NCBI GenBank assembly: GCA_013360745.1
Contig: JABWBA010000009.1
Location: forward strand, 94 to 64,093
Reading direction: 5' to 3'
Length of the DNA stretch: 64,000 bases
Origin: Chthonomonadales bacterium
Lineage (GTDB): Bacteria; Armatimonadota; Chthonomonadetes; Chthonomonadales; CAJBBX01
Shown: positions 13,101 to 38,102 of the stretch, piece after piece
How the letters are laid out: each line of letters opens with the position of its first letter
How positions within the stretch are numbered: the stretch's first letter is position 1
Notes under the pieces: model-generated
Seen by the model: the letters and a program-made list of their open reading frames with translations, nothing else
Told to the model about the DNA's origin: nothing
Databases searched by the model: none
Program-made: the position numbers and the translations under genes

Positions 13101-15727
13101 CCACGGGCAGCAGGCTCGTCTACAGCCCGATGGGTCTGGAGGGGTACTTCCCGGACTTCTGGGCGCCAGCCAATACACAGAATATCCTCGCCCTGAAGAA
13201 CCGGAGAAGCGAGCTCCTCCATAACTTCGCCTGCTGGTCCCGGACCGGCACCATAACCGGAACCGTGCTGGATGTGGAGGGCGCCGGAGCCCCATTGCCC
13301 AACGTACTCGTACGGCTCTCCAGCAGGCAGTCTGGCGGTCAGCCGGTAACCGCGTATACCGCTTTGACGGCGGAGAACGGCTCTTTCTTCGTCAACGGCG
13401 TCGAACCCGGCACGTATGAGATCACTGCCTCAAAGCCCGGCTTTACGATCCAGAAGCGTACCGGTGTTGTAGTCCACGGCGGAGCGCGAGACGATATTAG
13501 CTTCCGGATGACCAAGGCTGAGCCCGCAGTGATCAAGGGCAAGGTTACGCGTACCGACGGGACCACACCGGTGGTCGGCGCTACGCTTACGCTAACCGAT
13601 GTCCTGCCGCCCAACGCAACCTTCACCGGCGTCAGCGATGCGAACGGCGAATACACGATCACACGGGTGCCGTCTCAGACGAAGTACACCTTGACGTGCT
13701 CGGCGACCGGCTACGGCGAAAGCATTCCCGTGGAATATGCAGTCCCCAACCCGAATGATCCGGTTCAGGGACAGCGGGACGCCCTTGTCGTGCCGGCCAA
13801 GGTCTATGTCGGCTTCGACTTCCAGCTGAAGGCGGAGCAGGGCGGGGCCTCTGGTCGCGTGGTAGCGAAGGGGACAGGGCAGCCGATTGCAGGCGCCGTG
13901 GTAACCGCAACTCTCGGTTCCCGCAATGTCACCGCGACCACCGACGCAAATGGCAACTACAGCTTCAGCAAGGTCAGTACGCCGCCGAATGGCCTCGATC
14001 CCGGCGCATGGGGCCTGGTGGCCGCTGCACCCGGTTATCAGCCAAATGTGGCGATTAGCGTCCTCGTTGAGAGCAATAAGACGGCAGTGGTTCCGCTGAT
14101 TGAGCTTGAGACCGTACCTCCGGGGTCGGTGTCCGGACTGGTGACGCGCACCAGCGACGGCGCTGCGCTCAGCGGTGTCATGATCGAGATGCGTGATTCA
14201 GCCGGCAACCTGGTCGGCTCAACGACGACTGGCGCGAGCGCCACTTCGAACGGCTACACGTATAACTTCAAGATCGAGAATGCGCCGGCCGGCGTTACCT
14301 ACACGGTGACCGCCAGGTCCCAGGGCTTCACACCGACTCCCGAATCGCGACAGGCTGCAGTGCAGACGGGCGTTGAGACGCGAAACGTCAACTTCGCCAT
14401 GGCGCCGCTGCATACCTTCCCTGCAACGTTGTCGCTCGTATCAGCGCCGTATGATTACAGCGCCACCGACGCGGGCGATCTCCTGAGCATCCCGGCCGGG
14501 GACAGGCTCAACGGAACCTTCCTGCTGGCTACCTGGGCTCTACGCAAGTACCAGTACTACCCGCAGCCGAGCGTGAAGTCCTTCCAGCTTGGCCGGGGCT
14601 ACTTCATCTCCTACAAGTCGAATATCCCGCTGAGTCGGGAGGGAGGCACCGCGGATACCTCTCGGCCATTCGATATACCGCTCGACATCGGCTGGAACCT
14701 TATCGGAAATCCGTTCAACATCGACCTTGATTGGACCAAGGTGATGGTGGTCGATGGCGGCGCGGTCAAGACCTTCAGCGAGGCGATCTCCTCAGGCGCA
14801 ATCAGTTCCGCCCTGTATACCTATACGAGCGGCAGCTACATTCTCGACTATAAGATCGCGGCATGGAGAGGCTACTGGGTACGCGCCTACAGGAACATCA
14901 TCCTGCGACTCGATCCGGTGAACGGCCGATACGGACGAGGATCCGCGATCCCCGCCGGCAGGTCGGTGCTCCAGGGGCGTCAGGGCTGGGCAGCCAACCT
15001 TCGTGTCACTGCGGGCGGCTATACCGACCCGGATAACCGGTTTGGACTCGCCGCAGGGGCCACGGACGGCCCGGATGCATTCAAGGTCGAAAAGCCGCCT
15101 GTGTTCGGCGACCGCTATGTCTATCTGAGTTTCGATCATCCTGACTGGGGTGACCGAGCCGGCAACTATGGCGTCGATGTCCGGGCTGCTTCCGTTAGGC
15201 CCCAGTCCTGGCGGTTCACCGTGGCTACAGCGGTTAACGCGACCACCGCCGTCATTAGCTGGCCGGATCTCGCAACCGTGGATCGCAAGGTTCGACTTAC
15301 CATCATCGATGAAGCAACCGGCGTAGAGAGAGACATGCGATCCAACAGCAGCTATTCGTGGCAGGTGCCGGCGGGCGCCACCGAGCGCAAGTTCCGTATC
15401 GAGTCGGCGCCTCTGGACAGGAACGCGCTGCGGATCACCGATTTACGGATCGCTCAGGTGGGCAGAAGCGCCGTCAGCAATATCACCTTCGTGACGACGG
15501 CGGCCGCTAACGTTACCATCCGGATTATGGACGGTGGCGGGCGGCTTATCCGAGCGTTGTCTCCAGAAACATCGCGGGCAGCGGGTACACAGCAAGTAAA
15601 ATGGGATCAGAAGGACGGACGGGGCATCACGATGCCGGCTGGCGCTTACCAGGTCGAGGTACGGGCTCGTACACTGGACGGTAAGGAAACGACCAGAGCG
15701 GTAGCGATGCTGATTGTGACGAGATAG
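10130..15727 (+). CDS. Large secreted protein: TolB/PD40-like propeller, central domain, four carboxypeptidase-regulatory-like repeats, shared C-terminal module with FlgD-Ig domain
   Basis: Signal peptide (..ANA-Q); PD40-like motifs (PFWTQDEAYLYFHSTR, IAFDSNR, IAFASTR, VAFQSNR); four G.I.G.V...G.P..G..V repeats at ~13240-14400; GWNLIGNPF, GYWVRA, KPP, WDQKDGRG..PAGAY; ends IVTR. Confidence 0.8.
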   Translation: MNRVRLTHLCSILLVTPMLATLGLSAANAQGGGVWNGPRAPRGKPFIGYTAPMPPEVPAKPVKQTRADTTKGTVDLTPNTPLVHDGAPFWTQDEAYLYFHSTRTDIAGTTAGTLRHIYRMPAGGGAPIAITGPLSAGRLGEASNQSEPAANPGGNRLVYIETAASGAVDLVELDLATRTTKSLVRNNADGFNFVALNGPEYGVWSELNIAVLFAGRTSAAGPYKLFAVDTQSGRIRQITTGLSDDRNPTVSPAVGTSQLQAIIAFDSNRADASGASAKATRDIWVVPADRPGVPATRVTDFSANGASSSNMQPSWSTNKTDTSGFVSGAQLIAFASTRYDTANDGLANGVNGNGTHDIYWLKAAIGRDPNGGDYYTVTTPESQTNAAYKLPTGDPRHIYDDQYPVWPQFIGTYRVAFQSNRTGYDPANQVSTPAAPTAATPTDLFSSTLLDLNAPTLVRFNEMSGEVVNVEPRLAQAGSPVRITARLTDLETGIRDVWVQIKNPNSKYQSSDGVEHKVYAFAGMNLDGNNIALNVPVEYEQERIFIGSNPSDPQVNTYATPTYIASLDDFWAFTGGSNAPDPSWLRLQFESRDPATGVETFSATWTTPVSPSDYVIDVIAYDNAVDPFQGGAVNWKIYDNIWGFSTQPFQAGHGLLFVSDYAAGQKFFSSRFGEASLVNVLHTFWGTESWMTDIDVRLLPRTYRNGDTIGTLINVLNALGVKSYGSISPGADPSLWDGTVVDGFNVPMTQQYDIWRTLCRGPVPDSVLMQYLPHLTQQPPDVINGEKDPRPVTVAPRSVIWHSPYNGNLFVGPGTLMDLATQTQLHGFLQAGGRLLVNGQDFAWAATLDGGSPNAFLGSDLKAQYVRDSAGGTIFRSAAGAFRMQFGISSAYSLAAAGAFNPISHDPWEGIPGAYLSSRHRYPGPPEPPGDNHPISASNNYLAAGDDINNPRVYASPGNAYPDVVNSLSGGIPALSYGGGGTAVHYVHDTATGSRLVYSPMGLEGYFPDFWAPANTQNILALKNRRSELLHNFACWSRTGTITGTVLDVEGAGAPLPNVLVRLSSRQSGGQPVTAYTALTAENGSFFVNGVEPGTYEITASKPGFTIQKRTGVVVHGGARDDISFRMTKAEPAVIKGKVTRTDGTTPVVGATLTLTDVLPPNATFTGVSDANGEYTITRVPSQTKYTLTCSATGYGESIPVEYAVPNPNDPVQGQRDALVVPAKVYVGFDFQLKAEQGGASGRVVAKGTGQPIAGAVVTATLGSRNVTATTDANGNYSFSKVSTPPNGLDPGAWGLVAAAPGYQPNVAISVLVESNKTAVVPLIELETVPPGSVSGLVTRTSDGAALSGVMIEMRDSAGNLVGSTTTGASATSNGYTYNFKIENAPAGVTYTVTARSQGFTPTPESRQAAVQTGVETRNVNFAMAPLHTFPATLSLVSAPYDYSATDAGDLLSIPAGDRLNGTFLLATWALRKYQYYPQPSVKSFQLGRGYFISYKSNIPLSREGGTADTSRPFDIPLDIGWNLIGNPFNIDLDWTKVMVVDGGAVKTFSEAISSGAISSALYTYTSGSYILDYKIAAWRGYWVRAYRNIILRLDPVNGRYGRGSAIPAGRSVLQGRQGWAANLRVTAGGYTDPDNRFGLAAGATDGPDAFKVEKPPVFGDRYVYLSFDHPDWGDRAGNYGVDVRAASVRPQSWRFTVATAVNATTAVISWPDLATVDRKVRLTIIDEATGVERDMRSNSSYSWQVPAGATERKFRIESAPLDRNALRITDLRIAQVGRSAVSNITFVTTAAANVTIRIMDGGGRLIRALSPETSRAAGTQQVKWDQKDGRGITMPAGAYQVEVRARTLDGKETTRAVAMLIVTR

Positions 15728-15920
15728 GGAACGGGCTTTGCAGGGCCCGATGGAACTGCAGAGCCCATGCGCAATACTAGCGAGGGGCGATAGGGACATA
15801 TTGTGTTCGACACGATAGGACCTGCTCGCTGGAGGATCGCCAATAATGTGTTGCAGCGTTTCGTGCGCTAAGGGTTAAGCCGTTAGCGCAGGGGATGTGA
15901 TCCAGGGAGGAACTCTCAGA

Positions 15921-17831
15921 GTGAAACGGATCAGGAAGAGCAGGGCCGCGCGGTCCTTGAGCTGGTTGCTCACGGTCGCAATGATCGCACCGCTTGCCTG
16001 TCGACTTATCGGGCCCGAGGCAGCCTATGCTCAGGCTCAGGTCAGCGGTGTACAGACGGTGATTGTGATCGACTTCGTCAACAAGCCGGGATACCTCGGT
16101 GAGGCTCTCGCTCGACGAGCCACCGACGCTGTCGCTGTGGAACTGGCGAACTCCGCGCGCTTTGAGGTTCTGAGGCGTGATGAGATTGAAAAACAGGCTG
16201 CCACGCTCGGTCTGAAGAAGCCGTACGATGACGTCGCTCAGACCAAGCTGGCCTCTGCCCTCGGAGCTACATCGGTAATCAGCGGTGAGATCAGCTTCGT
16301 CAGTCCCGTGCAGAATGCCAGTCCGAAGACCGTCGTTGCTGGCTTGAAGGTCAGGATGCGAGCCCCAGGTTCTCCGGAGCTCGTCAACGGAGCGGCGCAG
16401 GTCGGCGAGGCGAAGGCACGTCCTGGACAGAGTGACGATGAATCGCTGGCGCAGGAAGCCGTGGACAACGCAGCCGTCTTGAGTGTCAAGCAGATGCTCG
16501 CTACGAATCTCACGGACGGCACCATCGTTAGCTCCGTCGGACCGCAGACCAGCCTCCAGATCCTGATCAATAGGGGCTCTCGAGACGGCGTGACTACGGG
16601 CATGCAAATGCTTGTCACGCGGGAACGTCAGCGCGTTGGCAAGATCCAGATTACGAACGTATTCGCCACGGATTCTGAGGCAAAGGTCATCGAAAACACC
16701 CTGGGCGTTCGGCCAGAGGACAAGGTCCGAGCCGTATTTCCCGAGCCGGAGTTTCCAAAACTAGCCGGTATCAAGGGCATCAAGACCGGCAGGACAGCGC
16801 CGAAGGGCTCGGTTAGTTCTCTGGGCAAACTTCTCGTCGTACTGGCCGCTGGAGTGGTGATAGCAGCGGCAGTCATGGGCGGCAAGAACTCGAGTGTTAC
16901 CGGCGTCGTTGCCGAAGCCGATGTCGAGGGCGTTACGCCTACCGTACGAATATCCTGGCGGGACAACTTCTGGGGCGCCACTACATTGGAGCATCAGATA
17001 TGGCGGAACCCGGATGCTCCGTTCAACTTCCAGGGCGAACCCATAGCCTCCAAGCAGTATGAACCACGCTATTCGGACAGGCCTGCTCCATACAGCTATT
17101 GGGATGGGACCAGGAGTTTCCTCCGCGCGCCGCTGCCGGGATCGGGCGGCGGCACCTCAGGCGAATCCGAGGCTGAGGTGGTCACACCCGAGGCTGGCGC
17201 GGTTCCGGGCTTCGTGATTGGTCAAACGTACACCTACCAGATCACCGGCGTGATCCGTCGACCGCTCGCGGTCGCCAATGATGGCGGTAGTGGCGGGGGC
17301 GGCGGGAACAACAGCGCTGGCACGCAGGATGTAGGCACGGATCCCGTCTCCTCATCTCCTGTCACCCCAATCGCTCAGGCTGCGCTGGTCGCCCCGGAGA
17401 ATATGTTCACCAACGTGGACCTCTCCCGATTTAATCCGACGTGGCTGAGCAGCTCAGGCGCAGATGTTTTTGTTGTCGAGGTGAGTACGGACAGGACGTT
17501 CAAAAACCGTAATCTTATCCTGCAGCTCGGTACCGTCTATTCCACCGCTCCCCTTTCTACCGGTGTCACACAGGTCCTGCCTGGCGAGGTGGACCTGACG
17601 ACCAATCCTGTGCTGCTTCGGGACGCTGTGTTTGCCAACTACGTCAACCGTGTCCCCGGTGCAACCAAACCGACACTGTACTGGCGTGTTGGCGGCAGGA
17701 ACGATGCCGATCGGCCAGGACCGGTGCACTGGATCTCAAGGAACCATCAGGATCGGGATCGAACGTTCCGTTATGTCTACTCTGAAGTTAGGAGCTTCAC
17801 GCCGGCCGAGATGCCGCCGCCACCCCCGTAG
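15921..17831 (+). CDS. CsgG/TolB-N-like + FlgT-C-like secreted protein with internal hydrophobic helix and poly-Pro C-terminus
   Basis: GGAGG RBS, GTG start; signal peptide; VIVIDFVN..LANSARFEVLRR..LGATSVISGEI (CsgG-like); ILINRGSRDGV..G.I.I.NV (FlgT-C-like); LLVVLAAGVVIAAAVMGG; ends MPPPPP. Confidence 0.65.
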   Translation: MKRIRKSRAARSLSWLLTVAMIAPLACRLIGPEAAYAQAQVSGVQTVIVIDFVNKPGYLGEALARRATDAVAVELANSARFEVLRRDEIEKQAATLGLKKPYDDVAQTKLASALGATSVISGEISFVSPVQNASPKTVVAGLKVRMRAPGSPELVNGAAQVGEAKARPGQSDDESLAQEAVDNAAVLSVKQMLATNLTDGTIVSSVGPQTSLQILINRGSRDGVTTGMQMLVTRERQRVGKIQITNVFATDSEAKVIENTLGVRPEDKVRAVFPEPEFPKLAGIKGIKTGRTAPKGSVSSLGKLLVVLAAGVVIAAAVMGGKNSSVTGVVAEADVEGVTPTVRISWRDNFWGATTLEHQIWRNPDAPFNFQGEPIASKQYEPRYSDRPAPYSYWDGTRSFLRAPLPGSGGGTSGESEAEVVTPEAGAVPGFVIGQTYTYQITGVIRRPLAVANDGGSGGGGGNNSAGTQDVGTDPVSSSPVTPIAQAALVAPENMFTNVDLSRFNPTWLSSSGADVFVVEVSTDRTFKNRNLILQLGTVYSTAPLSTGVTQVLPGEVDLTTNPVLLRDAVFANYVNRVPGATKPTLYWRVGGRNDADRPGPVHWISRNHQDRDRTFRYVYSEVRSFTPAEMPPPPP

Positions 17832-17924
17832 GAGGAAGGCTCGGTACGGTATAGGGAGGACGGCGCGAACATCTTCAGCTGCGCCGTCCACCTTCGTCGG
17901 TATGCGTGAGAGGAGCTAGGAAGC

Positions 17925-20924
17925 ATGAGGATGTGGCTTCGACTGTTGACGGGCCTTGCGTTGGCCGGAGCGATGGTGTGCTTCGGTATCGGTACGCTTG
18001 CGCAGGCAGGCCAGAGGCCGACGTTCGTTTCGGGCGACGTCGTCGTATGGGCGAAAAGCGGAGTTTCGGCGGATACAGTCCGCGAGGCCGCCAATGGGGC
18101 TAACTGTGACCTGGTCCGAATGACGCTCATGCCGGACGTTTATCTGCTTCGGGTAAAGATGATCGGTACGCCGACCTCTCAGGATACGCTGAATGCCGTC
18201 GACGCACTGGCCCGGCACGACGCCTTCCGCTGGGTCGGTCCGAACACGATCAAGTACCCGCTCGACACGACTCCCGATGATCCTAGGTACAGGGAGCAAT
18301 GGCATCTACCTCTCATGAACCTGCCGCAAGCCTGGGATATTCATAGGGGATCTCAGGATGTGGTTGTGGCGGTCATTGATACGGGTGTCGATACGACGCA
18401 TCCCGATTTACGAGACAGGCTGCTCCCCGGCTACAACAGCAGCGGTACGGGCTCGACGAACGACCCCACGGACACGAACGGTCACGGAACCCATGTCATC
18501 GGCATCATCGGGGCAACGACCAACAACGGCCTGGGCGTGGCAGGGGTAACCTATGAGGGTGTTAAGGTTCTCCCGATCAAGGCCGGAGACGCGGGATTCA
18601 CTCTGACCGCGATCGTTGATGGTTTGACCTTCGCTGAGCGGCAGGGCGCCAATATCGTGAACCTGAGTCTCGGATCTCCAGCGCCCAGCGATACCCCACC
18701 GGCGCAGCTTCCGCCGGATGAAGCCAAAATCATGCAGATGGCCCGCAACGGCGTACTCTTCTCCATTGCGGCAGGAAACAGCTTCACTGACGGTAATCCT
18801 CCGTTTGCGCCCGCCTATCTTGCCCAGCTCGATGATCATATTATCTGCGTGGCGGCCTGCGATTCTAAGAAGAAACAGGCTCCCTACTCCGAGGCTCGTC
18901 CCTATACAACAATCAGCGCACCCGGAGGGAATACGGGCGCAGGACAATCGGAAGGGGTGCTGAGCACCTACCTTACATCCGCAGGCGGCTACGCGTTCGA
19001 ACAGGGCACGTCGATGGCGGCTCCGAACGCCGCAGGCGTGATGGCGCTGGTGCTCAGCGCCGGGGCTGAGCCTGCTGAGATGAAGTCCGTTCTTACGACT
19101 ACGGCGGACCACTCCATGTTGACCACCGTACCGGATAATGCGTTCGGATACGGAGTGATCGACGCCTATGCCGCGCTCCTAAAGGCCGGCATCAGTGTGA
19201 CGGTCCTGGAACCTGAAGGAACGGGCGGAAAGGCTTCCGCTGGCGGGATCGTACGAAATCCCGCACCGGTTGAGACCCTCGCCCCGGTCATCCGCGTCGC
19301 GGTCTCTCAGATCACCCCGGATAACCTCACGCTAACCCTGAACGGCCAGATTGTGACGGGATGGACGCTTGAGAACATCTCCCGTACGGTCAAAGACAAC
19401 GCAGGGAACGATGTGCCTGTTGTTTACGAAGCGGTTATCCGAGATAACGTGGTGCCAGCAGGACAGAACATCATTGATGTCTCAGGCGTCAAGCCCGGAC
19501 CTCCTGATCGGGTCGTTACGGATACGCGCAAGTTCATGGTCATCCCGCGGCAAATACCAGCTGGCCGATCCTTGATCTCGATCCCATACCGCGAGGACGG
19601 CGCCACACCGGAGAGCTATTTCGGCACCACCTTCCGCCTAGCGCGCTGGCTCCCCCTCGAAGCTCGATATGCTGTCTACTCGCCGATGCTGGGCACGGAT
19701 CCGGGAGCGTCGTTTACCCCGCCGGATACGGTCCCGCATCTCGACGGCTCGGCGGTGTCGGGCGTGCCTGTGGGCCTCGCTTTCTGGGCCGACCTGGAAT
19801 CCCTTAAGCCCGTCCTGACCAAAGGCCAACCCCTTCCAACTCGGTCGTATGTGATCCCGTTGCGGGGCCGGGGTGGTCTCGGGGTTACGGTAAGCTGGAA
19901 TATGATCGGTTGTCCGTTCCCGTACGACGTGCCCTTCAATGCGCTGCTCGTCGATACGCCCGAAGGCAGGATCACCATCGCCGCTGCCGTCAGCCGGGGC
20001 TATGTGCTGCCCAACCTCTATTCATATGATGGATCCACGGGATACACCTTCCGGACGCTGCCGGACGGCGCACTGCGCGCATGGGAAGGGCACTGGATGG
20101 GCGTTACGAGCAGCGAGGATATCGCCCTTGTGGTGCCGCCGGTCAGGATAACACGCTCCAGGTCGCAGGGCGTAACCGCTCCGCGCGATGGCTGGAGGCT
20201 GCAGCTTCAGGCCTCTGGCTCCGGCCTTCAAGATACATTCAACTTTATCGGTGTTCAGGCCGGCGCCTCCAACGGTCAGGATCTGCTCGATGTGCCCAAA
20301 CCACCGATGATCTCTCCCTTTGTGAGTGTGGGTGTTGAAGCGGACTCGCAGGGGCGCTCCGTCCTTCTGGCCCAGGATATCCGCAGCTCAACCGGAGCCC
20401 AGACGTGGAAGGTCGCCCTGACGTCGGATACCCCGAACTCTGAGGTTACGCTCCGTTGGAACTCGGTGGGCTCCTGGCCTGCACGAACCCGCCTCCTCCT
20501 TACCGATGCGGCGACGGGCCAAACGATTGATATGAGGACCCGATCCTCGATTACCTTCCAGTCCGGCAGCCAACCGGCGCCGCGGTCCCTGACGGTCTCG
20601 GCGAAGCCGATTAGCGCAACCGCCCTCCGCATCAGCAATGTCGCCGTCCGGACCAGCGGAACGCGCGGGGTTGGATCCGTGCAGGTAAGCTTTACGCTCA
20701 GCTCCACCGCAGCGTATGAAGTGCGGGTTCTTGGGGTCGACGGTCGACCTGTGGGAGTGGTCTCATCCAGGGCTGCCGCAACCGGCGATGTTCAACTTGT
20801 TTGGATTGGTAAGGATAACGCTGGCAGAAACGTGCCAGCTGGAACGTATCTCGTGCAGATCCGGGCCATCGACGACGATGGAGATGTTGTTAGGGTAATC
20901 CAGCCGTTTTCGCTGGTGCGCTGA
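17925..20924 (+). CDS. S8 subtilisin-like serine peptidase with shared C-terminal module and FlgD-Ig domain
   Basis: Catalytic triad VAVIDTG, HGTHV, GTSMAAP; oxyanion AAGN; signal peptide and propeptide; C-terminal WNMIGCPF, KPP, WIGKDNAG..PAGTY; ends SLVR. Confidence 0.9.
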   Translation: MRMWLRLLTGLALAGAMVCFGIGTLAQAGQRPTFVSGDVVVWAKSGVSADTVREAANGANCDLVRMTLMPDVYLLRVKMIGTPTSQDTLNAVDALARHDAFRWVGPNTIKYPLDTTPDDPRYREQWHLPLMNLPQAWDIHRGSQDVVVAVIDTGVDTTHPDLRDRLLPGYNSSGTGSTNDPTDTNGHGTHVIGIIGATTNNGLGVAGVTYEGVKVLPIKAGDAGFTLTAIVDGLTFAERQGANIVNLSLGSPAPSDTPPAQLPPDEAKIMQMARNGVLFSIAAGNSFTDGNPPFAPAYLAQLDDHIICVAACDSKKKQAPYSEARPYTTISAPGGNTGAGQSEGVLSTYLTSAGGYAFEQGTSMAAPNAAGVMALVLSAGAEPAEMKSVLTTTADHSMLTTVPDNAFGYGVIDAYAALLKAGISVTVLEPEGTGGKASAGGIVRNPAPVETLAPVIRVAVSQITPDNLTLTLNGQIVTGWTLENISRTVKDNAGNDVPVVYEAVIRDNVVPAGQNIIDVSGVKPGPPDRVVTDTRKFMVIPRQIPAGRSLISIPYREDGATPESYFGTTFRLARWLPLEARYAVYSPMLGTDPGASFTPPDTVPHLDGSAVSGVPVGLAFWADLESLKPVLTKGQPLPTRSYVIPLRGRGGLGVTVSWNMIGCPFPYDVPFNALLVDTPEGRITIAAAVSRGYVLPNLYSYDGSTGYTFRTLPDGALRAWEGHWMGVTSSEDIALVVPPVRITRSRSQGVTAPRDGWRLQLQASGSGLQDTFNFIGVQAGASNGQDLLDVPKPPMISPFVSVGVEADSQGRSVLLAQDIRSSTGAQTWKVALTSDTPNSEVTLRWNSVGSWPARTRLLLTDAATGQTIDMRTRSSITFQSGSQPAPRSLTVSAKPISATALRISNVAVRTSGTRGVGSVQVSFTLSSTAAYEVRVLGVDGRPVGVVSSRAAATGDVQLVWIGKDNAGRNVPAGTYLVQIRAIDDDGDVVRVIQPFSLVR

Positions 20925-21000
20925 CATGGATTTGGACGGCTCGATGAACTGTGCAGCAGTAGGCGTGCCGCGGTCGGTGCGCATACGGGAGGAACGACGA

Positions 21001-23673
21001 ATGATCTGGCTCGGACCGCGAAGCAGACGGCACGGCTTGCTCGTCGCCTGCGTGGCCGCGATTGGCATGGTCTGTGTTAGTGCGCAGACCGCCTGGTCGC
21101 AAACGCTCGTGTCCATACAGAACGGCAAGCTGATCGCTACGGTGGGCGAGGCCGAAGATCTGAACAGCGTGAACGTCGCTGGCCGCTTCGGGATCACCGA
21201 AGCCAGCGCCACGGGCGGGGTTCTCCTTCAGCTCCCACGCTCATCCAGCCTCAACCAGCTCGGCAGCTACGTGACTGTGCGGATCGACGGCGGAACCCCA
21301 TTTCTTCAGGATGGCACCGTCGCCGAGGGCGTCCCGGGATGGGATATCGCCTGGGGCTACGAGGATACACCGGACACGGATATCACCGGCGAGTGGGTAC
21401 AGGCGCCGACCGCGATCAGCCCGACCAGGCTCGTCGCTAAGTGGCGGACCATTCCCGATGCCGCGGCTGATCCCCGCATACCGGAGATCCATGTCAACCT
21501 TGATATGCGCATCGTGTATGACATGGTGCTCTATAAGTTCACGGTGATCAATCTGGATACTTCGGCGCATACGGTAGGCCTTAGGTTCGCTCAGGATTTC
21601 GCCGTTCCGAACACCACGGATGGACCGATCCTCACGCCTAAAACGCCGCAGATTACGCACGAAACGTCCCTGATCAGCAGCTTGATCCCGGATTACTGGC
21701 GGTCCGCAGGTACGGAGGGAACTAGCACCGTTGGGGCCCATGTCCGAAACTCAGGAATGTCCAACTACCCGACGAATCCAGATCGACTTATCTTCGGCCT
21801 TACGGATCGCGTCACCGGTCCGCTGTGGGATTTCACCCCCAATAGCGGCACCAGCCTCCTCGGACCGACCGCGGATGCGTCTGCCGCGCTCTATTTCAAC
21901 CCGGTCCAGCTTGCTACGGGGCAATCCCGGGTGTTCTCGACGATCCTGGGCGCCGCCGGTTCCAGCTACGAGTTTGGTGATCGCATCGCCGCGGGCCTCG
22001 AAGGCCCGGTATCACTCAAGTACGATCCCAGTAAGCCCGAGGCACAGCGACTCCAGCCGAGTCCGTTCAGGGTGACGGCGTTTCTTCATAATATGAACAC
22101 CATCAACTTGAGTAACGTCCGGGCTGTCCTTTCCCTTCCTTCGGGATTGTCGCTGGACGCGGGTGAAAACCCTGTTAAGATGGCCACGTCCGTCGGTGTC
22201 GACGGTGAAGCGACCTTCACGTGGAATGTGGTACCGACAGGCGCGGCCTCGGGTCGACTGACCTATTCCGTAGCGCTCAGCGCCGATCCCGGTGGCCAGG
22301 GTGTGAGCGTGGCGCGCGATATCGATATTCCCTCCCTGCCTTCGCAACCGTTCGGCGCCGGATGGCAGATGGTATCGTTCCCCTATGTGCTTGATGACCG
22401 TACACCTGCTGGGGCGATCAACCTCGATCCTGCGATGTACGATCTGGTCCGATGGAACCCGACTGCAGCCCGGTACCAGGCCGTGCAGTATCTCAATCCT
22501 GGGGAAGGGTACTGGCTCCGGCTTCCAGAAGGTCGGACGGTAACGCTTGCGAACGCACAGCCGGTCAACGTTCCCGGCGGTGATTTCGAGCTGAATTTAA
22601 CCACAGGCTGGACTCAGATCGCGAACCCCTTCCTCCTGCCGATTCGATGGGGTGATCTCAGAGTCCTGAACCTCGATCGGAATGACCGGGACTATCTCGT
22701 CCCGCTCAGTGTCGCCGAGGCATCTAGCTTTGAGCGGCGATGGATCTCCCCGACGATCTTCCGCTATGACGTTCAGGCGGGCATGTATAAGTTCGATCAG
22801 GACTTCGGTACGGAGATGAAGCCCTTCGTCGGCTACTGGGTCCACGCTCTGAAACCGAACCTCGTTCTCGTGATCTCGAAGCCCTCGGGACGCGCGGCTT
22901 CGGTGGCGGCCACGCGAGGCGCTGATGTCAAAGGCGGTTGGAAACTTCGCCTCAACGTGACGGACGGAACGACACAGGATGGATGGAACTTTATCGGCGT
23001 TGGTCGCGATGCAAAAGATGGCGTCGATCAACACGATGTGATGAAGCCTCCGACCGTTGCCGATAGCGTCAATCTCGCGATCCTCGGCCTGGGGCAGGGC
23101 ATCGCGCCTGAGCGTCTTGCCCAGGATATACGCTCGGCGAGCCCGACTGCCAAGAGGTGGCAGATCTCTGTCAGCAGCGCGACGCCGAACGCCGATCTGA
23201 CGCTAACGTGGCCGGACATCAGTACCCTGCCGCGAACCTATGAGCTGTACATCAGCGATGGCTCCAACCCCGCTCGCCAGGCCATGCGCACGACCTCGTC
23301 GCTGCGGATCAACACGGGCCCTGCAGGCACAAGGATGATTACCCTCGACGCTGAACCCCGGGCGGCCGCAGGCGCCTTCCGGATCACTAGCTGGAACGTC
23401 CTTCCGACGAAGAGCCATGGCAGCGCCACGATTAGCGTTTCAGCATCGCAGACCGCTACCCTATCCATTCGTGTCCTTGGGCCTGGCGGCGCCATGGTCC
23501 GCCGGTTAACCGGACGGGCTGGCGGCCTGGGACAGACGAGTGAAGTCACCTGGGACCAGCGCGATTCCCGGGGTATAGCCGTGCCGGCGGGAGCCTATAC
23601 GGTTGAGATCAAGGCGACGTCTACGGACGGCCAGAGCGCCCGTGTGGTCGCTCCGCTCGTGGTGACGCGCTGA
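21001..23673 (+). CDS. Secreted beta-rich protein (N-terminal beta-sandwich, Ig-like domain) with shared C-terminal module and FlgD-Ig domain
   Basis: GGAGG RBS before ATG 21001; signal peptide; SYVTVRIDG..VGLRFAQD domain; LSLPSGLSL..TWNV Ig-like domain; GWQMVSFPY, GEGYW, GWTQIANPF, KPP, WDQRDSRG..PAGAY; ends VVTR. Confidence 0.75.
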   Translation: MIWLGPRSRRHGLLVACVAAIGMVCVSAQTAWSQTLVSIQNGKLIATVGEAEDLNSVNVAGRFGITEASATGGVLLQLPRSSSLNQLGSYVTVRIDGGTPFLQDGTVAEGVPGWDIAWGYEDTPDTDITGEWVQAPTAISPTRLVAKWRTIPDAAADPRIPEIHVNLDMRIVYDMVLYKFTVINLDTSAHTVGLRFAQDFAVPNTTDGPILTPKTPQITHETSLISSLIPDYWRSAGTEGTSTVGAHVRNSGMSNYPTNPDRLIFGLTDRVTGPLWDFTPNSGTSLLGPTADASAALYFNPVQLATGQSRVFSTILGAAGSSYEFGDRIAAGLEGPVSLKYDPSKPEAQRLQPSPFRVTAFLHNMNTINLSNVRAVLSLPSGLSLDAGENPVKMATSVGVDGEATFTWNVVPTGAASGRLTYSVALSADPGGQGVSVARDIDIPSLPSQPFGAGWQMVSFPYVLDDRTPAGAINLDPAMYDLVRWNPTAARYQAVQYLNPGEGYWLRLPEGRTVTLANAQPVNVPGGDFELNLTTGWTQIANPFLLPIRWGDLRVLNLDRNDRDYLVPLSVAEASSFERRWISPTIFRYDVQAGMYKFDQDFGTEMKPFVGYWVHALKPNLVLVISKPSGRAASVAATRGADVKGGWKLRLNVTDGTTQDGWNFIGVGRDAKDGVDQHDVMKPPTVADSVNLAILGLGQGIAPERLAQDIRSASPTAKRWQISVSSATPNADLTLTWPDISTLPRTYELYISDGSNPARQAMRTTSSLRINTGPAGTRMITLDAEPRAAAGAFRITSWNVLPTKSHGSATISVSASQTATLSIRVLGPGGAMVRRLTGRAGGLGQTSEVTWDQRDSRGIAVPAGAYTVEIKATSTDGQSARVVAPLVVTR

Positions 23674-23723
23674 TGACGGCCTCAACTCTATCAGCGGCCT
23701 CGCAAGAGTTCAGGGGGAAGCAA

Positions 23724-26700
23724 ATGAGATCCTTTCGCGGAGTGATGAGGTGGCTCATCGCTGCCACTCTGCTCGGCGTATACCTCGCCCGCCCGGCAGT
23801 GGCGGCGCCGACATTATCGGCGGAGTGTTTCGCCGTCCGTCAGAACGATACCACCGAGGCGGGTACGGAGCAGACATGGTTCGCCTTTCGGGCCGTTGTG
23901 GCCCCGAGCGGTGATACTGCGGCCCTGGTGGGCAGGCCAACTCTCCATCTTGGTGTTCAGTTCGTAGATGAAGCGAACGGCATCGTCGTCTCCCGTCGTC
24001 AGATCACGATGGAGCGGGATCGCACCCGTTCAAGCTTCGGGCGCGATACCTTCTGGATTGCGTTCGTACGCGGTATGGACATCCCCAGCACGGCCTCGGG
24101 TTCGCAGGTGCCCCCTACCGGCGTAGGGCGCCCGGTGAGTTCGACATGGGTAGTCGAGGCCTGGGAGACCGACGGTACCAACACGACGATGTCGGCCAGC
24201 GACCAGCTCAACCTTCAGGTATATCCGTCGATACGAGATCTTGATTCGCCCTACTGGGCCGTCCATATGGTTCCCGTTGACGCCAATGGCAATCCCGATA
24301 ACGCTCCGGGCCCTGGCCAGAATGGCAACGGTCTTCGAGTCGATCCAGAAGACGCGACGCGGCCGAATGACGGAGGCGGATCTCACCGCTATACATGGAG
24401 GGTTAATGTCCGCACCTATGGCGGATTGCCCCCTGCCCTATTCCAGCGCCAGAATACGTTCGATTACTCGATGTTCTGGTTCGCATCCCAGAGCCGGTAC
24501 GATGCGCTCCGAAGCGGTGTCCTCCTTCACCTGGTGGATCCCACCGGAACCGTACGCGTATTCCCGATGACCAGCCCGGACGTGGATCCGGCAGCGACCT
24601 ATCCAACCGAAGGCTCGTTTCTCCACCCGGTCGCCAACCCGGCCCTGGCCAGCGGCACGGTCTATACCTACACCATGGAACCGACGGAGTTCTGGCCCGT
24701 AGGCAGCGCGATTTTCTTCGGCGGCGACCTCCAAAGCATGGTCCCGCAGTTCACCGTCCCGGACGGGATCCCCGTGATCCCGCTTGGCGGCGATATCGGC
24801 GAGAGCTTCGTCGGGCGCCCCTACGCCAACGTCTACGCCTCGTTCAACGAGCTGGATTCGACGATACTCTATGCGGCGTTCATGTCGCCGCCGCCGCCCA
24901 TGCCGATCTACAGCACTGGCGTAGGCGGCCGCGCAGGCCAGTGGGGTTACTATATTCGGTCCTCCATCGACTTCAGACCGGATCCTGCGGTAGGCAACGA
25001 TACCAACGTCGATAACTTCATCGCCAACTCGACAGGCACTCCGCCGAACCGTCAGTGGACCGAATACCGGGATAACTGGGGGCAGACCCCCATCCGATAC
25101 CGCCGGCTTCAGGATAGCGACGATCCGGACCCGAGAAACGTCGACGCGGAAACGCCCTACGTTCACCCGTATGTCACTCCGATCCTCGTCGACGGACATT
25201 GGAGCGACGATCTGCTCGAGAACCGCAACCTCCAAAAGCCGCCGAACTATCTGCTGGGTATTGAACCCTGGCCGCCATACGACGATCCGGCGATGAGCTT
25301 AGCGTCCAATGCGCGCCGGTCCAGGGTCACGAACAAGACCAGGGTACGGTTCCAGGTTCGGGTGGTTCATGTACCCAAAGGCGACGTCTCCGGCCCGCTT
25401 TCCGTCCGCGTCTGGATCGGCAACCGAAACGACGGCTCGATGCGCCCCTACATGATGCAGGTCGCTCCGAACCAGGGGGCGGTCAATGACGCCCAGGGCG
25501 TCCTTTATTACTATGATGCCGTGCTCGGCCCCGGCAACGAAGGTCGTAACGCCATATACTTTGAGGCGGACGACGGCGTCAACCGAGCGATCTGGCCGCG
25601 CCGACCGGCGGATGATCCCCAGGGGATTGCCTTGCCGAATCGGAGCGATGCAGCGTTCTTTGGCTCGGTTACCCAGGTCGGCAAGAACTATATGATGGAA
25701 CCGTGGGTTAACCATCGTCCCGAGCTCCTCAACGGAAGGGTTACCCCGACATCAGGCGTCGTTGGCACATCGTTTACCTACGAAGTCCTCTATCGTGACG
25801 CAGATAACGATCCCCCGACCGATGCCTGGGTGATCCTCAATAACAAGCCGGAGCACTGGCGTTATCGGATGACCGAGGCGCCGGAGGATGCCGGCAACAG
25901 CTACGCGCAGGGCCGACGCTACAGGCTGGTCCTCAATCAGCTCCCAGGCGTGCCGCTGAACAAGTACAACTTCTACTTCCAGTTCCGTGATAACTGGGCG
26001 ACCTCGAATCGGCCGATCCGCCGGGAGTTCGGCGAGTGGACCACCTTCCCGCAGGGCGACGACAGCGGTAATCCGAGCAACGTCATCGAGGGGCCGACGA
26101 TCATCGCCAACAGCGCCCCCGAACTGAGAGAGGTCAGCATCTCCGCCAGCGATACGGCGTTGAACTCGGCAACCAAGTACGACTTCTTCGTTCGGTATCG
26201 CGACGTCGATAACAATGCGCCTAACAGCGTGAAACTGTTCGTGGAACTCTACGATTCCGCGACGGGAGCACGGCTGACTACGGATCCTGGAACCTCGTTG
26301 GTCCCGGCGGAAAGCGGCACGAACTACGCCTCTGGCGTCCAGCACCATCTGCCCGCGCCGATCCGCCTCTCGCCGGCGCCCCTTGGTCAGGAGTATCGCT
26401 ATCGCTTTACGACCAGCGACGGCGTCAACAACTCCAATCTAGTCTCTGTCGGCACCGGCTCCAGCTCGCTGACGCTCAACACCGCTCGAGTGCTGCGCCG
26501 CGTGGCCCCGAATGTGTACGACGATCCTTCGGGGACCCGAGCATGGGCTGCGGATACGACGTTGTTCGTTTGGAGGACGGATACCGGCGGCAACACCGTG
26601 CTTCTCGCACCCGGTGAGTTTAGCGTTGATGCGCCGAACGGCAGGCTTACGATCCCGGGAGCTTCGGATACCGATGTAATCCGAGCCTCCTACCGATACG

Positions 26701-29700
26701 AACAGACCGTTGGACCGACAGTCAATGAAAATGTCGTACCGGTCCTGACTCTGCCCGATGCCTATGATAAGCCGCTGAACTACAAGACCATCTCTCAGAC
26801 GGTGGGCGATACTTCGACCGCCTTCGCTTTCGCTATCCTGTACACCGATGCAGATAACCAGCCGCCGGTACTGGATGACGGCGTTACTGAGGGCGTCTAT
26901 CTGGTCGTCGACAATACCAACAAGATCCCGCTGTCCCGCGATCCTAATACGCCCACTCCGGTGGACTACAGGACGCGAATACGGTACATCGGCTCCACAA
27001 CCCTCCCGATCGGCCACCACGTCTACCACATCGAAGCAACGGACGGCGCTGGCGTATCCCGACGGCCGCTCGTTTCGGCGGACGTGGATGGTAATGGCGA
27101 TCCGATTCCAGCGGATCTACCGGTCAGCGTCAACAGCGCCGGCACTCTCACGAACCTGCTCATCGAACCGTTCCCGAAGGGACGCAGTAATCAGCTCTAC
27201 CAGTTCACCGTCACCTACACCAGCCCTGATGACCGCGCTCCGGAAGATAGCGGCAGGGGCCCGATTGAACTCTGGGTTCGAGATACGACCGGCGGCGCCT
27301 ACACCTATGTCGTAATGTCCGCGATTGACCCGATTACGCCGGGCGCCTATGCTGCCGGCGTCCGATTCCGAGCCCAGCTCACCGCACCTGCGGCGCCGCT
27401 TCAACCGGGTACCCACACGGTGACGGTCGGCTTCCAGAATGATCGCTCCCAGAGCTACGTTCCGTTCACGGATCTGCTGGTCAACGATAAGCCGGTGCTG
27501 AGTGCGCCGACGGTGACTCCGAACCCCGCAACGGCGGCCCAGGACGTGGTCTTCACCGTCCGATACACCGACTCGATGCTGGGTGACGCTCCCACTCGGA
27601 TGGAACTGCAGATCGATCGAAAGCCGGTGACGAGCCTGCCGGTCTCGACCCCGTCGGCCCCAACCGCTGATGACTATAAAGCGGGCGTAACCTACACATG
27701 GACCATTCCGGGTGTCGATATCGGCGTCGGCAATCACCTGTATCAGTTCCTCGCAGCGGACGATGTGGAAGATGCCGATCCTGTACCTCCAACGCCGGAC
27801 TCGTTCACGATCAACGGCGCTGGCGTGATGACGCTGTCGGACGGGAAGGTAACCCCGACGACGGGCAATCAGGCCAACACCTATGTCTATAGCGTCAAGT
27901 ACACGCACAGCGACAACATCGCGCCCTATCGGATCGAAGTGATCGTCGATCCCGAGACTGGCGCCGTCGCCCACACCCTGCATCCAACGGGAACGGCTCC
28001 GTTCAACTACGCGGCCGGAGTGACCTTCGAGAGTGATCCGATCCAACTCCCGCCCGGCATGCACACATTCCGGTTCGAGGCGCAGGATCGGGTCCAGACG
28101 GTCCAGCATCCTGTCGCGCCTGCAGTCCTGGACGGCCCGAAGGTCAACTTCCCGCCGGAGCTCAGCAACGTTCAAGTCACGCGGAACACCCTGCCCGAGA
28201 TCCATACCGTCGGCGCAGGCAACGCCCTGACGCCGCCACTGGTGGGAACGCTGAACGACAGCTACACGTTCAAGATCACCTATAAGGACGTCGATCAGAA
28301 CAACCCGACGGCTCCCGAAGCCGATCACTACGTGCGGCTCGTCATCGACGGGCAACCCCCGATCACCATGGCAGCGCAGGGGACCGATTATGCGAACGGC
28401 GTTGTCTATTCCGCTACAGTCTCGAACCTGACACCCGGCGACAAGACGTTCCGGTTCGAGGCCTTCGATGGCCCGGGCGCGATGGGCGACACGGTGCATT
28501 ATCCTGGACCGGGTCTCTGGATTTCAGGACTGTCCATCAAGAACGTGCCCGAGGTCACCGTCCCGGGTCCGGCCGACCCCGCGACGAACGATCATTCTCT
28601 GACGCCGCTGGCCGGCATCCGATCGACCGTCTACCAGTATCGAGTTCGGTATCGGCACCTCGACAATACCGCGCCGACCTCGCTCGACCTCGTGATCGAT
28701 CCCGGGCAGCCGGGTGAGAAGCGTGTGCCGCTCACCCCGCAATCGGCAGGCCCGTACGACTATACGACTGGCGTCCTGTATGGATATAACACGTCGGCCA
28801 ATGAGCTAACGGTCGGCGCCCATACCTACAGATTCGAATATAACGATGGACTGACCGACGGCGTCGTCGGCAGCTTCAACGGCCCGACGGTGTCGAATGC
28901 GCTGCTCAGCCTGACGGCTCCCGTGAGCGGTACGCTTTCACCGCTATCGGGTCCGCCATCGGTCGACTTCACCTACCAGGCGCTCTACACGAACGCCGAT
29001 AACAACCCGCCGAGCTATGTCCGCGTCGTTATCGACGGCACTGCCCACGATATGACGAAGGCGACGACGAGCACCGACTATCGAATCGGCGTTCTCTATG
29101 AGCTGAAGTACCGCTTCCCGAGGGATTCCCAGCAGAGGACCCATGGCTACCACTTCGAGGCCAGGGATACGGTCGAGCCCACGGTAGTTCGTTATCCGAC
29201 TTCTGGCGAGACCTCCGGTCCGACCCTCAATACCGCGTTCTTCGTCATCACCGGCATCTCCCAGCCGCCCTCGACCGCGGGCTCGCCCATCGTCGTCGGC
29301 GGGACGGTTACCGTAGCCGGGCGACTGGATACAAACGCACCGATCGGAGCGCAATCCATTCCGGTTCAGCTCGTACGGCCGGATGGAAGCGGCGTCAATG
29401 AAAGTGCGACGACGGCTGCGGACGGTTCGCTGGCCTTCACCTCGTCGACGATCCTGGATCAAACCGGCGACTGGAAGGTTAAGCTCAGCTGGTCCGGTCA
29501 GCCCGGAGTGTATGACTCGACCTCCGCTGAGCAGACCTTCAAGGTGGTCGGCGCAGAGGTATCTCTGACGAAGGGCGTTCTCGATCTCATCGCTCTACCG
29601 GTCGTACCCGTGACGCCCGATCCAAGCATCACCTTCAATCCGGTGCGCGCCAACGGCACGGCGGCGCCGATCTCGAGCCTCGACCTGGTAACGTGGGCTC

Positions 29701-37521: not shown

Positions 37522-38102
37522 GGGGTTGCGACTCGGATTGAGACGATCCGGTCGCCCTTCAGGCGTACGATGGCGACGCATCGTCGCGGCGGCTCTGATG
37601 CCGGGCTGGATTCGGAGTCCGTGGTCATCCGCCAGATCCGTTCGTCGCCGTAGATCTCCGGCTCTGGCAAATCGGCCGTCGCGGAGTCCAGATTCTTACG
37701 AGATGCGCCCGGAACCAGTGCGCCCATCCAGCCGAGCTGTCGGACGAGGCCGCGGATCCGCGGGTACGGTCGGTCCTTGTCTCGCGTCTGACCGTTCGAT
37801 GCGACGAGCGACACCGTTCGAACCGTCCTCTGGGCGTCAAACGCGGGCGGGCGGAGGATCGTCAGGAGACATTCGGCGGCGGTCCACTCCCATATCAGGC
37901 CGGTGCGATTCTCGATCTCCTGCGGCCGACCCAGTCTGGCCTCGACGGTTCGCAGGCTGTCGACCCCAACCTGAATGCCCGCGATCCTGGCGATTCGGGG
38001 CGCCTTGAGCGGGATCGGCGACCGTGCCTGCGCGCCCGGGAGGAGGGCGTATGTCAGCGCTATCGCCGCCGCTGCGGCGGCTGGTCGGATAAGGCGGGTA
38101 AG
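37518..38102 (-). CDS. Hypothetical secreted protein (no canonical start codon near the signal peptide)
   Basis: Signal-like LTRLIRPAAAAAAIALTYALLPGAQA; IAGIQVG..VEARLGRP; stop overlaps next gene start; the upstream ORF extension overlaps the MFS gene. Confidence 0.45.
   Translation of the reverse strand, partial: LTRLIRPAAAAAAIALTYALLPGAQARSPIPLKAPRIARIAGIQVGVDSLRTVEARLGRPQEIENRTGLIWEWTAAECLLTILRPPAFDAQRTVRTVSLVASNGQTRDKDRPYPRIRGLVRQLGWMGALVPGASRKNLDSATADLPEPEIYGDERIWRMTTDSESSPASEPPRRCVAIVRLKGDRIVSIRVATP

Follow-up and report, generated by a model that had tools for sequence, protein, structure and literature searches.

Why would one genome end five large proteins with dissimilar heads in the same long C-terminal tail? 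The question is raised by a 64,000-nt stretch of DNA from a Chthonomonadales bacterium (phylum Armatimonadota; GenBank assembly GCA_013360745.1, contig JABWBA010000009.1, positions 94 to 64,093, hence an offset of 93), which we call the window. Its G+C content is about 62%, the genome to which it belongs is 97% complete, and the named relatives of its proteins come from Chthonomonadales and other Armatimonadota assemblies. Four genes of one cluster in the window end in a tail, or cassette, of about 440 aa (amino acids), and a fifth copy lies on another contig. The cassette has three parts: two domains that match no named family (Parts 1 and 2), and a terminal immunoglobulin-like (Ig) domain of the FlgD_ig family that closes on an arginine (Part 3). 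We propose, with a probability of roughly 0.45, that this cassette is a sorting-and-anchoring module for the outer-membrane surface.

Five proteins share a homologous three-part tail

An earlier note, made from the DNA letters, had placed the tail in four genes, and we recovered it there: the four tails are in frame at the 3' ends of four open reading frames (ORFs), and a search of the window genome with a profile built from the four window tails (A1) places all of them. The tails can be aligned over their whole length in genes 1, 3, 4, and 5 and are homologous end to end. Pairwise identity is 26.9-33.4% at the amino acid level (28-31% to the tail of gene 1) and 41.7-44.6% at the nucleotide level (33-37% at third codon positions), in keeping with the earlier remark that DNA identity is low. 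The fifth copy (G000:C81:10670-12022, minus strand) sits in a 1159-aa ORF. Because this copy was absent from profile A1 and nevertheless scores E 5.8e-79 over profile positions 1-440, the similarity of the tails is far beyond chance. The genome scan therefore keeps the four window tails but raises the total to five, and the genome has no Part 1 or FlgD_ig match beyond these five. The tail genes of the window are as follows.

10130..15727, plus strand: gene 1 (P0001, 1865 aa); four CarboxypepD_reg domains (Pfam E 1.7e-40), then the tail at 14411-15724 (Part 1 14411-14938, Part 2 14966-15430, Part 3 15431-15724); FlgD_ig 41.6 bits (cut-off 27)
17925..20924, plus strand: gene 3 (P0002, 999 aa); subtilase head (Pfam Peptidase_S8, E 8.1e-50), then the tail at 19548-20921 (E 2.4e-186; Part 1 19548-20156, Part 2 20172-20627, Part 3 20628-20921); FlgD_ig 32.1 bits
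20926..23673, plus strand: gene 4 (P0003, 915 aa as the longest ORF); head without a named family, then the tail at 22345-23670 (Part 1 22345-22893, Part 2 22918-23379, Part 3 23380-23670); FlgD_ig 31.9 bits, the sole Pfam match
23673..30854, plus strand: gene 5 (P0004, 2393 aa); long head of ~100-aa repeated units, then the tail at 29562-30851 (E 2.7e-171; Part 1 29562-30134, Part 2 30156-30563, Part 3 30564-30851); FlgD_ig 43.6 bits

All five tail proteins begin with a basic-then-hydrophobic N-terminus of the Sec-signal type, as read from the translations without a predictor. The database copy of gene 4 (P0006) has 890 aa and is 100% identical, so the gene probably starts at 21001. We note that the head of gene 5 (23673-29560), viewed by eye in translation, consists of ~100-aa units with a motif like Y/F-x-V-x-Y-x-D-x-D-N-x-x-P; Pfam returned only sub-threshold PKD-like rows for it. 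The fifth protein carries FlgD_ig at 35.0 bits behind a head without a Pfam family. We dropped an 'M6 metalloprotease' label for this protein, as the family concerned (PF05547) lies on a distant match (P0028) and the C81 ORF itself gives only FlgD_ig.

Conservation within the tail was read from an alignment of 36 tails from 26 genomes of the order Chthonomonadales (A2), with residues numbered as in the gene 1 tail; the limits of the three parts were taken from its columns together with an AlphaFold2 (AF2) model. Residues P13, G61, W95, Y143, P229, P230, D300, W398, Y413, and R438 are invariant, and S11, G94, N96, G99, P101, G154, and W156 are kept in at least 90% of the tails. The earlier note had described an invariant KPP; the two prolines hold (P229 and P230), but the lysine is replaced in some tails. 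It had also staked its reading on two points, conservation of the terminal arginine in a larger alignment and the lack of a characterized match for Parts 1 and 2. The arginine closes 41 of 41 tails across the order (cut from 50 loci) and 90 of the 97 stored proteins of the 1-2-3 arrangement with complete C-termini, the window's own included. The second point is taken up below. The AF2 model of the whole tail (from A2) has a pLDDT of 89.3 and a pTM of 0.73, with one weak linker at residues 177-182.

Part 3 is a FlgD_ig-type domain

Part 3 (residues 341-438, ~98 aa) is the FlgD-like Ig domain that the earlier note took it to be. It scores above the Pfam FlgD_ig (PF13860) cut-off of 27 bits in all five proteins (31.9-43.6 bits), and its AF2 model has seven strands over residues 342-436. 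We compared the model with 48,161 PDB representatives. The best solved fold was assembly domain II of Vpr (8jmw; Z 13.5, root-mean-square deviation 2.5, 99 aligned residues, 16% identity), the second-best was the C-terminal domain (CTD) of PorU (6za2; Z 11.3), and the CTD of PorZ (5m11; Z 10.0) ranked fourteenth. FlgD of P. aeruginosa (3osv) was matched at Z 9.6, with a deviation of 1.5 and 24% identity, and many Ig domains of GH2 and Fn3 type were matched at Z ~10. NCBIfam gave weak matches of Part 3 to the C-termini of PorZ and PorU (E 6.9e-5 to 0.19).

These likenesses bring to mind the type A CTDs that direct cargo through the type IX secretion system (T9SS). Like them, Part 3 is an Ig-like beta-sandwich of ~80-100 aa that stands last in large proteins exported by Sec, and it keeps a basic residue at or close to the C-terminus. 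By this analogy, the terminal arginine may be the counterpart of the conserved lysine of type A CTDs. Part 3 also differs from them: in Armatimonadota it ends exactly at the arginine, it stays under the cut-offs of the sorting models, and in the window genome it always stands behind Parts 1 and 2 and is never found without them, unlike a general cargo tag.

Parts 1 and 2 form a large family without a named relative

Part 1 (~175 aa) is aromatic-rich and mostly beta, with a weak two-fold internal repeat. The internal duplication that had been seen in it by eye is weakly backed by hhalign, in which its halves match each other over 31 columns (P 4.8e-4, probability 32%). Part 2 (~155 aa), which holds the invariant Pro-Pro, is all-beta with ~11 strands, as assigned by DSSP on the whole-tail model only.

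On the second point staked by the earlier note, neither part matches a characterized domain in Pfam, NCBIfam, or PDB sequence profiles. Pfam, searched with the whole proteins and with the 36 members of the Part 1 and Part 2 profiles (A3 and A4) at E <= 1, gave scattered sub-threshold rows only; NCBIfam gave nothing for tail residues 1-340; and the best E-value in PDB sequence profile searches was 0.068 with Part 1 (to RemZ) and 0.33 with Part 2. In the ESM Atlas both parts fell in unnamed clusters only, and the nearest cluster that has a name, with Por_Secre_tail in 10% of its members and a score of 0.79, was set aside as below lead level.

Fold searches gave the same picture for Part 1. Folded alone, it reaches a pLDDT of 96.1 and a pTM of 0.90, yet among the 48,161 PDB representatives its best VIA-align match has Z 2.9 and none reaches Z >= 5. 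Models without a clear match usually reach Z 7-8 in this comparison, and the Part 1 list is unusually empty. Foldseek on PDB had a best E of 0.13. When the whole tail was searched, the fold matches were taken up by Part 3, and the rows from Foldseek were of the generic tandem Ig kind. The sole neighbor of Part 1 in BFVD is A0A8D9C8P8 (E 1.3e-5, TMq 0.61), which is probably another member of the Part 1 family. This 587-aa protein is named 'putative hemin binding protein' in an 'uncultured marine phage' record; either its contig is bacterial and was filed under viruses, or a phage carries the gene.

The RemZ match deserves a comment. Profile A3 touches residues 687-778 and 809-874 of F. johnsoniae RemZ (8gl8 chain D), which is not significant (E 0.068; per-domain 2.4 and 530). 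RemZ 687-895 has the same G-x-G-Y and L-x-G-N-P-Y motifs as Part 1 and, judging from these motifs, may be a distant Part 1-like region. Passages of the report on the T9SS translocon describe RemZ as a type A substrate whose CTD is the sole resolved part in the structure (PMC10994853).

The Part 1 family is large. A3, run against 1.84 billion cluster representatives, reaches 18,429 proteins with an E-value cut-off of 0.001; a cut-off of 1e-10 leaves 6,666 of them, and one of 1e-30 leaves 421.

The cassette is old, and its heads are fixed in Armatimonadota

Full-length tail matches (1 to 7 per genome) occur in every one of the 41 genomes of the order that were searched, among them that of the window. 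In a sample of 151 Armatimonadota genomes, Part 1 (A3) was found in 140, with 1 to 22 matches each; by family, it was found in 0/6 genomes of f26 and 9/13 of f6. We built a quick IQ-TREE tree in which all 41 tails were kept, with SH-aLRT support only. The tails cluster by ortholog type (support 98 for the gene 4 type, 100 for the C81 type, 99 for the S8 type, and 91 for the gene 1 type); the gene 5 tail forms a long branch beside the gene 1 type, and its place is uncertain. Every ortholog-type group includes families f1, f2, and f3, and therefore the duplications are older than these families and the tails stayed with their heads. Together with the presence of the cassette across the phylum and in other phyla, these groups agree with the earlier view that the module is old and maintained by selection. 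The accompanying idea of varied heads on a common tail fits this genome, and other phyla far more so, but within Armatimonadota the heads are fixed syntenic orthologs and not freely exchanged ones.

Among 203 stored proteins, local profile scans matched 202: 101 have the order 1-2-3, 63 have 1-2-1, 25 have Part 1 alone, and 13 have other orders. The architecture by group, read from 80 named genome loci, is as follows.

Armatimonadota records: 1-2-3; in most, the profile runs up to the final residue, an R
KSB1, Neomarinimicrobiota, Eisenbacteria, Cytophagia, Lentisphaeria, Gemmatimonadota, and some unplaced metagenome-assembled genomes: 1-2-3; 3-18 extra residues, with endings like ARKLVLLK
UBP15 and unclassified relatives: 1-2-1; Part 1 recurs at the end, and there is no Ig domain

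The 1-2-3 heads outside Armatimonadota are mutually unrelated (BNR/Big_5, LRR, and HYDIN-type Ig). We scanned five such proteins and found FlgD_ig above its cut-off in four, the one from Neomarinimicrobiota scoring 24.3 bits; Por_Secre_tail reached 21-26 bits (cut-off 27) in three of the five. Four genomes in which SprA, the T9SS translocon protein, scores well over its cut-off, and which have the Part 1-2 pair before T9SS-like CTDs, hold 2 to 9 Part 1 matches each. We also observed that the 1-2-1 cassettes (loci L115-L131) are C-terminal in proteins of 700 to >5,000 aa and have no conserved last residue.

Putative outer-membrane genes lie beside the tail genes

The tail genes of the window belong to seven genes in one run on the plus strand, from 10130 to 33803. 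The order of genes 1-7 is complete in one genome of family f16 (G137; tblastn). The remaining members are as follows.

15897..17831, plus strand: gene 2 (P0005, 644 aa); without a tail, a conserved cluster member
30882..31709, plus strand: gene 6 (P0204, 275 aa); weakly LptE-like, with a hydrophobic helix toward the C-terminus and an end rich in Gly and Pro
31728..33803, plus strand: gene 7 (P0205, 691 aa); Big_1 (35.9 bits), then an LptD-like jellyroll and barrel; last of the conserved cluster

A profile of 21 gene 7 homologs (A5) matches LptD (7omm) at E 4.3e-6 over profile positions 140-312, which take in the jellyroll and the start of the barrel, and matches LptA (2r19) at E 0.024. The gene 7 protein ends in ...AAHF, and homologs occur in 143 of the 151 sampled phylum genomes, mostly in single copy. 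Gene 6, directly upstream, matches Pfam LptE at E 0.0025 (18.9 bits, under the cut-off of 23; profile positions 9-118 of 118) and has an ortholog at the same place in G137 (5.6e-26). Gene 7 was not reported by the Pfam models LptD and LptD_N. Because Pfam LptD finds no other candidate in the window genome, the LptE-like gene 6 and the Big_1-LptD-like gene 7 may be the divergent lipopolysaccharide (LPS) translocon of the phylum. A Part 1 match lies within 15 kb of a gene 7 homolog in at least 30 of the 151 genomes, from 11 families (hand count from coordinates).

The gene 2 protein starts with a hydrophobic N-terminus, has a stretch weakly like LpoB and a hydrophobic helix in its interior, and ends in PPPPP; its only Pfam rows are sub-threshold ones to LpoB (E 0.051) and MreC (E 0.016), and its ortholog stands at the same place in G137 (tblastn 8.6e-83). 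We note a layout common to genes 2 and 6: a hydrophobic N-terminus, a small alpha/beta domain weakly like LpoB or LptE, a hydrophobic helix late in the chain, and an end rich in Gly and Pro (...PPPPP in gene 2 and ...GGGGGGGGIDSPPPPPR in gene 6). Both genes are kept at the same places in G137.

A second family of interest consists of large proteins of outer-membrane type. Its member in this genome is a 1082-aa ORF outside the window (G000:C43:68274-71519, minus strand, locus L088) that ends in ...LGLRF and has no Pfam or PDB sequence match. A gene of this family lies directly upstream of a fifth-type tail gene in three genomes by tblastn (G044, G136, and G050) and in 13 genomes of 7 families by coordinates, among the matches listed; the window genome is not one of them. 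There, the ORF upstream of the C81 tail gene was tried as a member and rejected as unrelated (hhalign probability 0.07%; no Pfam family). The SprA model (TIGR04189) matches one ~100-aa segment of the family (model positions ~587-690), with a best E of 5.1e-12. Across 61 Armatimonadota genomes sampled for the SprA search, 39 have some SprA-model match at E <= 0.01, none of them over the cut-off. We rejected the family as a SprA homolog, as neither a single sequence nor a profile of 21 members (A6) finds SprA among PDB sequences. Weak matches to the SprA segment also occur in other ORFs of ~1,100-1,190 aa (for example G000:C52:14438-14563), and in SprA-bearing genomes the same weak segment is found in ORFs of ~1,120-1,420 aa.

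Downstream of the cluster, and unrelated to the tails, a 673-aa protein on the minus strand (35563-37581) shows full-length DUF6785 (E 6.5e-155) and DUF6784; beside it, at 33881-35803, is a protein with a carbonic-anhydrase domain.

A proposed sorting-and-anchoring module for the outer-membrane surface

The reading we favor would work as follows. Large proteins exported by Sec would be sorted to the outer face of the outer membrane and held there by the cassette. Part 3 would dock on an outer-membrane partner via its basic C-terminus, by analogy with type A CTDs, which dock on PorV via a conserved lysine. Parts 1 and 2 would remain on the mature protein as a pedestal close to the membrane. In the window genome, the five proteins that carry the cassette make up a fixed set of conserved exoproteins that includes a subtilase, and four of them come from the cluster whose last two genes are the LptE-like and LptD-like ones. 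The CTDs of PorU and PorZ offer a precedent for anchoring, as they are uncleaved and kept as anchors that tether the proteins to outer-membrane barrels. In the solved T9SS translocon complexes, as described in passages of PMC10994853, the contact surface of type A CTDs has a single conserved residue, a lysine near the C-terminus that is bonded to PorV, and is otherwise little conserved.

Several observations argue for this reading: the five copies of one cassette, the Sec-type N-termini, the likeness of Part 3 to the PorU and PorZ CTDs, and the kept arginine; the Part 1-2 pair also precedes T9SS-like CTDs in SprA-bearing phyla, and the tail genes travel with genes for likely outer-membrane barrels. 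By analogy only, Part 3 with its arginine could also be the export signal that the earlier note proposed. The fold likeness to the PorU and PorZ CTDs speaks for such a signal; the failure to find SprA, PorU, and PorV, and the fact that Part 3 never occurs without Parts 1 and 2, speak against it.

A number of points weigh against the sorting-and-anchoring reading. Part 3 has no sorting-domain match: the four window proteins give no Por_Secre_tail (PF18962) at E <= 0.1 and no TIGR04183 at E <= 1, and NCBIfam, down to E <= 1, offers Part 3 only FlgD equivalogs and the C-terminal ends of T9SS proteins. SprA was over its cut-off in 0 of the 61 sampled Armatimonadota genomes, and in 4 of 4 positive controls (Cytophagia, KSB1, Neomarinimicrobiota, and Eisenbacteria genomes); the window genome yields one 22.5-bit SprA segment match and no match to PorU or PorV at its 97% completeness. 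Since UBP15 and its relatives have the 1-2-1 form without an Ig domain, Part 3 is not essential to the role of Parts 1 and 2. The link to the neighboring genes is loose in places: family f26 has a gene 7 homolog in 6/6 genomes and Part 1 in 0/6, family f27 has Part 1 in 3/3 and a gene 7 homolog in 0/3 with the gene 7 query, and no more than 91 of the 151 genomes yielded the large outer-membrane protein. Adjacency to the lptD- and lptE-like genes may merely reflect a common envelope operon. Finally, the surface location, the docking, the role of the arginine, and the partner are all matters that we infer from the likenesses described above. Two further searches bear on the machinery. GldM and GldL gave no match, yet the control genomes were equally silent, so this result is uninformative; and the one UBP15 genome searched has no SprA over the cut-off.

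A bolder form of the idea reaches beyond anchoring, and we think it doubtful. Armatimonadota, which lack SprA in our sample, might own an unrecognized surface-display or secretion route in which the 1-2-3-Arg cassette is the address label and an adjacent barrel is the outer-membrane part, either the Big_1-LptD-like protein with its LptE-like companion or the ~1,000-1,100-aa protein. On this view Part 1, with a new fold, would tether exported proteins to the LPS leaflet, and the Part 1-2 pair would be the so far unnoticed pedestal of some T9SS cargo elsewhere.

Other explanations for the cassette

The tails might instead bind each other or a common scaffold, building a fiber, a sheath, or an S-layer-like lattice that bears the five heads; the earlier note's suggestion of polymerization would live on in this form. 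We consider this unlikely, though several results suit it. The top fold match of Part 3 is an assembly domain of Vpr, which is an S8 peptidase like gene 3, and passages of PMC10657474 describe active fibrils of Vpr in which two C-terminal assembly domains mainly make the subunit contacts. The 1-2-1 form has a second Part 1 in the place of Part 3, which fits mutually pairing domains, and five paralogous tails that are conserved together as a fixed set would be in keeping with a defined hetero-assembly. Foldseek with the whole tail lists S-layer and WxL-interacting surface proteins, though these are generic tandem Ig matches. However, likeness to a single Ig fold says little when hundreds of unrelated Ig and Fn3 domains match Part 3 at Z 9-10, the Vpr chain gives no match to Parts 1 and 2 at E <= 10, and a copy number that ranges from 1 to 22 across the phylum is not suggestive of a fixed stoichiometry. 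A homodimer prediction with two whole-tail copies (A2) scored 0.00 in both runs; controls were not run, and we count it neither way.

A second alternative, which we hold to be improbable, makes the tail a secretion signal of an unrecognized translocon that replaces SprA in Armatimonadota. Part 3 and the arginine would be the recognized elements, and the translocon would be the ~1,000-1,100-aa outer-membrane protein or the Big_1-LptD-like barrel. The resemblance of Part 3 to T9SS CTDs, the repeated match of the SprA model to one segment of the large outer-membrane family, and the place of that family upstream of fifth-type tail genes speak for such a system. Yet the A6 profile does not find SprA among PDB sequences (its best match, at E 0.076, is unrelated). 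The large protein need not replace SprA at all, because ORFs of similar length with the same weak segment also occur in genomes that have true SprA. It was not found in 60 of the 151 genomes, many of which have Part 1, and in the window genome its gene (on C43) is not beside the tail gene (on C81). The motor proteins GldL and GldM gave no match either, in searches made without a working positive control.

Alternatively, Parts 1 and 2 could be carbohydrate- or other ligand-binding modules that aim the heads at an external polymer, which seems to us more improbable still. In secreted glycoside hydrolases, such modules are often placed ahead of the sorting domain. The most conserved Part 1 residues are aromatic or Gly/Pro (W95, Y143, W156, G61, and G94), as in many sugar-binding sites, and some heads in other phyla carry the sugar-related domains Glucodextran_B and CHB_HEX_C. 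Against this, no binding-module family or fold was matched, and the cassette here is borne by a protease and by non-enzymatic giants in a fixed orthologous set. The order and spacing of Parts 1, 2, and 3 are strict across great evolutionary distances, and because of this a single envelope ligand fits better than changing substrates.

That the tails are ordinary type A CTD signals of a canonical T9SS is very improbable and was already disfavored: FlgD_ig and Por_Secre_tail are closely alike and the cassette also occurs in SprA-bearing genomes, but SprA was over its cut-off in none of the 61 Armatimonadota genomes sampled and in all of the controls, PorU and PorV have no match in the window genome, and this genome has just five such domains, every one of them fused to Parts 1 and 2.

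Relation to known systems

The cassette combines features of several known systems and coincides with none of them. PorU and PorZ share with it the fold of Part 3 and the weak NCBIfam matches at the C-terminus; their heads show no homology to those of the tail proteins, no partner of PorV or PorQ type was identified here, and the sequence identity is 18-20%. Vpr of Bacillus is likewise an S8 peptidase with a C-terminal Ig-type domain of the Part 3 fold. Its host, however, is a single-membrane bacterium, and its chain sequence has neither Part 1 nor Part 2; the tails are known here from sequence and models. Part 3 is by score a member of the family of the FlgD hook-cap protein (3osv), but the tail genes have no flagellar context and FlgD_ig occurs in the window genome only in the five tails. 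S-layer homology (SLH) domains and similar C-terminal anchors also place a common module on unlike heads within one genome, and our searches, none of which was aimed at these anchors, showed no sequence or fold relation between them and the tail.

C-terminal sorting and anchoring domains are already known as a kind, and FlgD_ig is known as a family. Three features appear to be undescribed: (i) the Part 1-2 pair as a defined and very large family with an unmatched predicted fold; (ii) the fixed position of this pair before CTD-type domains across phyla; and (iii) the Arg-terminated form, in a phylum in which we found no SprA, on a fixed kit of five proteins beside LptD- and LptE-like genes. A search of open-access full text gave nothing relevant that joins Armatimonadetes with FlgD, FlgD Ig-like domains with type IX secretion, or Armatimonadota with T9SS CTDs.

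What the finding means

To our knowledge, the surface placement of very large proteins is poorly known in diderm bacteria outside Proteobacteria and Bacteroidota, and we know of almost no envelope biology on record for Armatimonadota. The Part 1 family counts at least 18,429 cluster representatives, yet it lacks a model in Pfam or NCBIfam and has neither a solved structure nor a fold match; it deserves a family definition as well as a structure. The same Part 1-2 pair stands before a T9SS-type CTD where SprA is present and before an Arg-terminated CTD-like domain where SprA was not found, which amounts to a natural experiment on a CTD without a T9SS. For the organism at hand, the genes next door to the tail genes encode a short, testable list of candidate partners.

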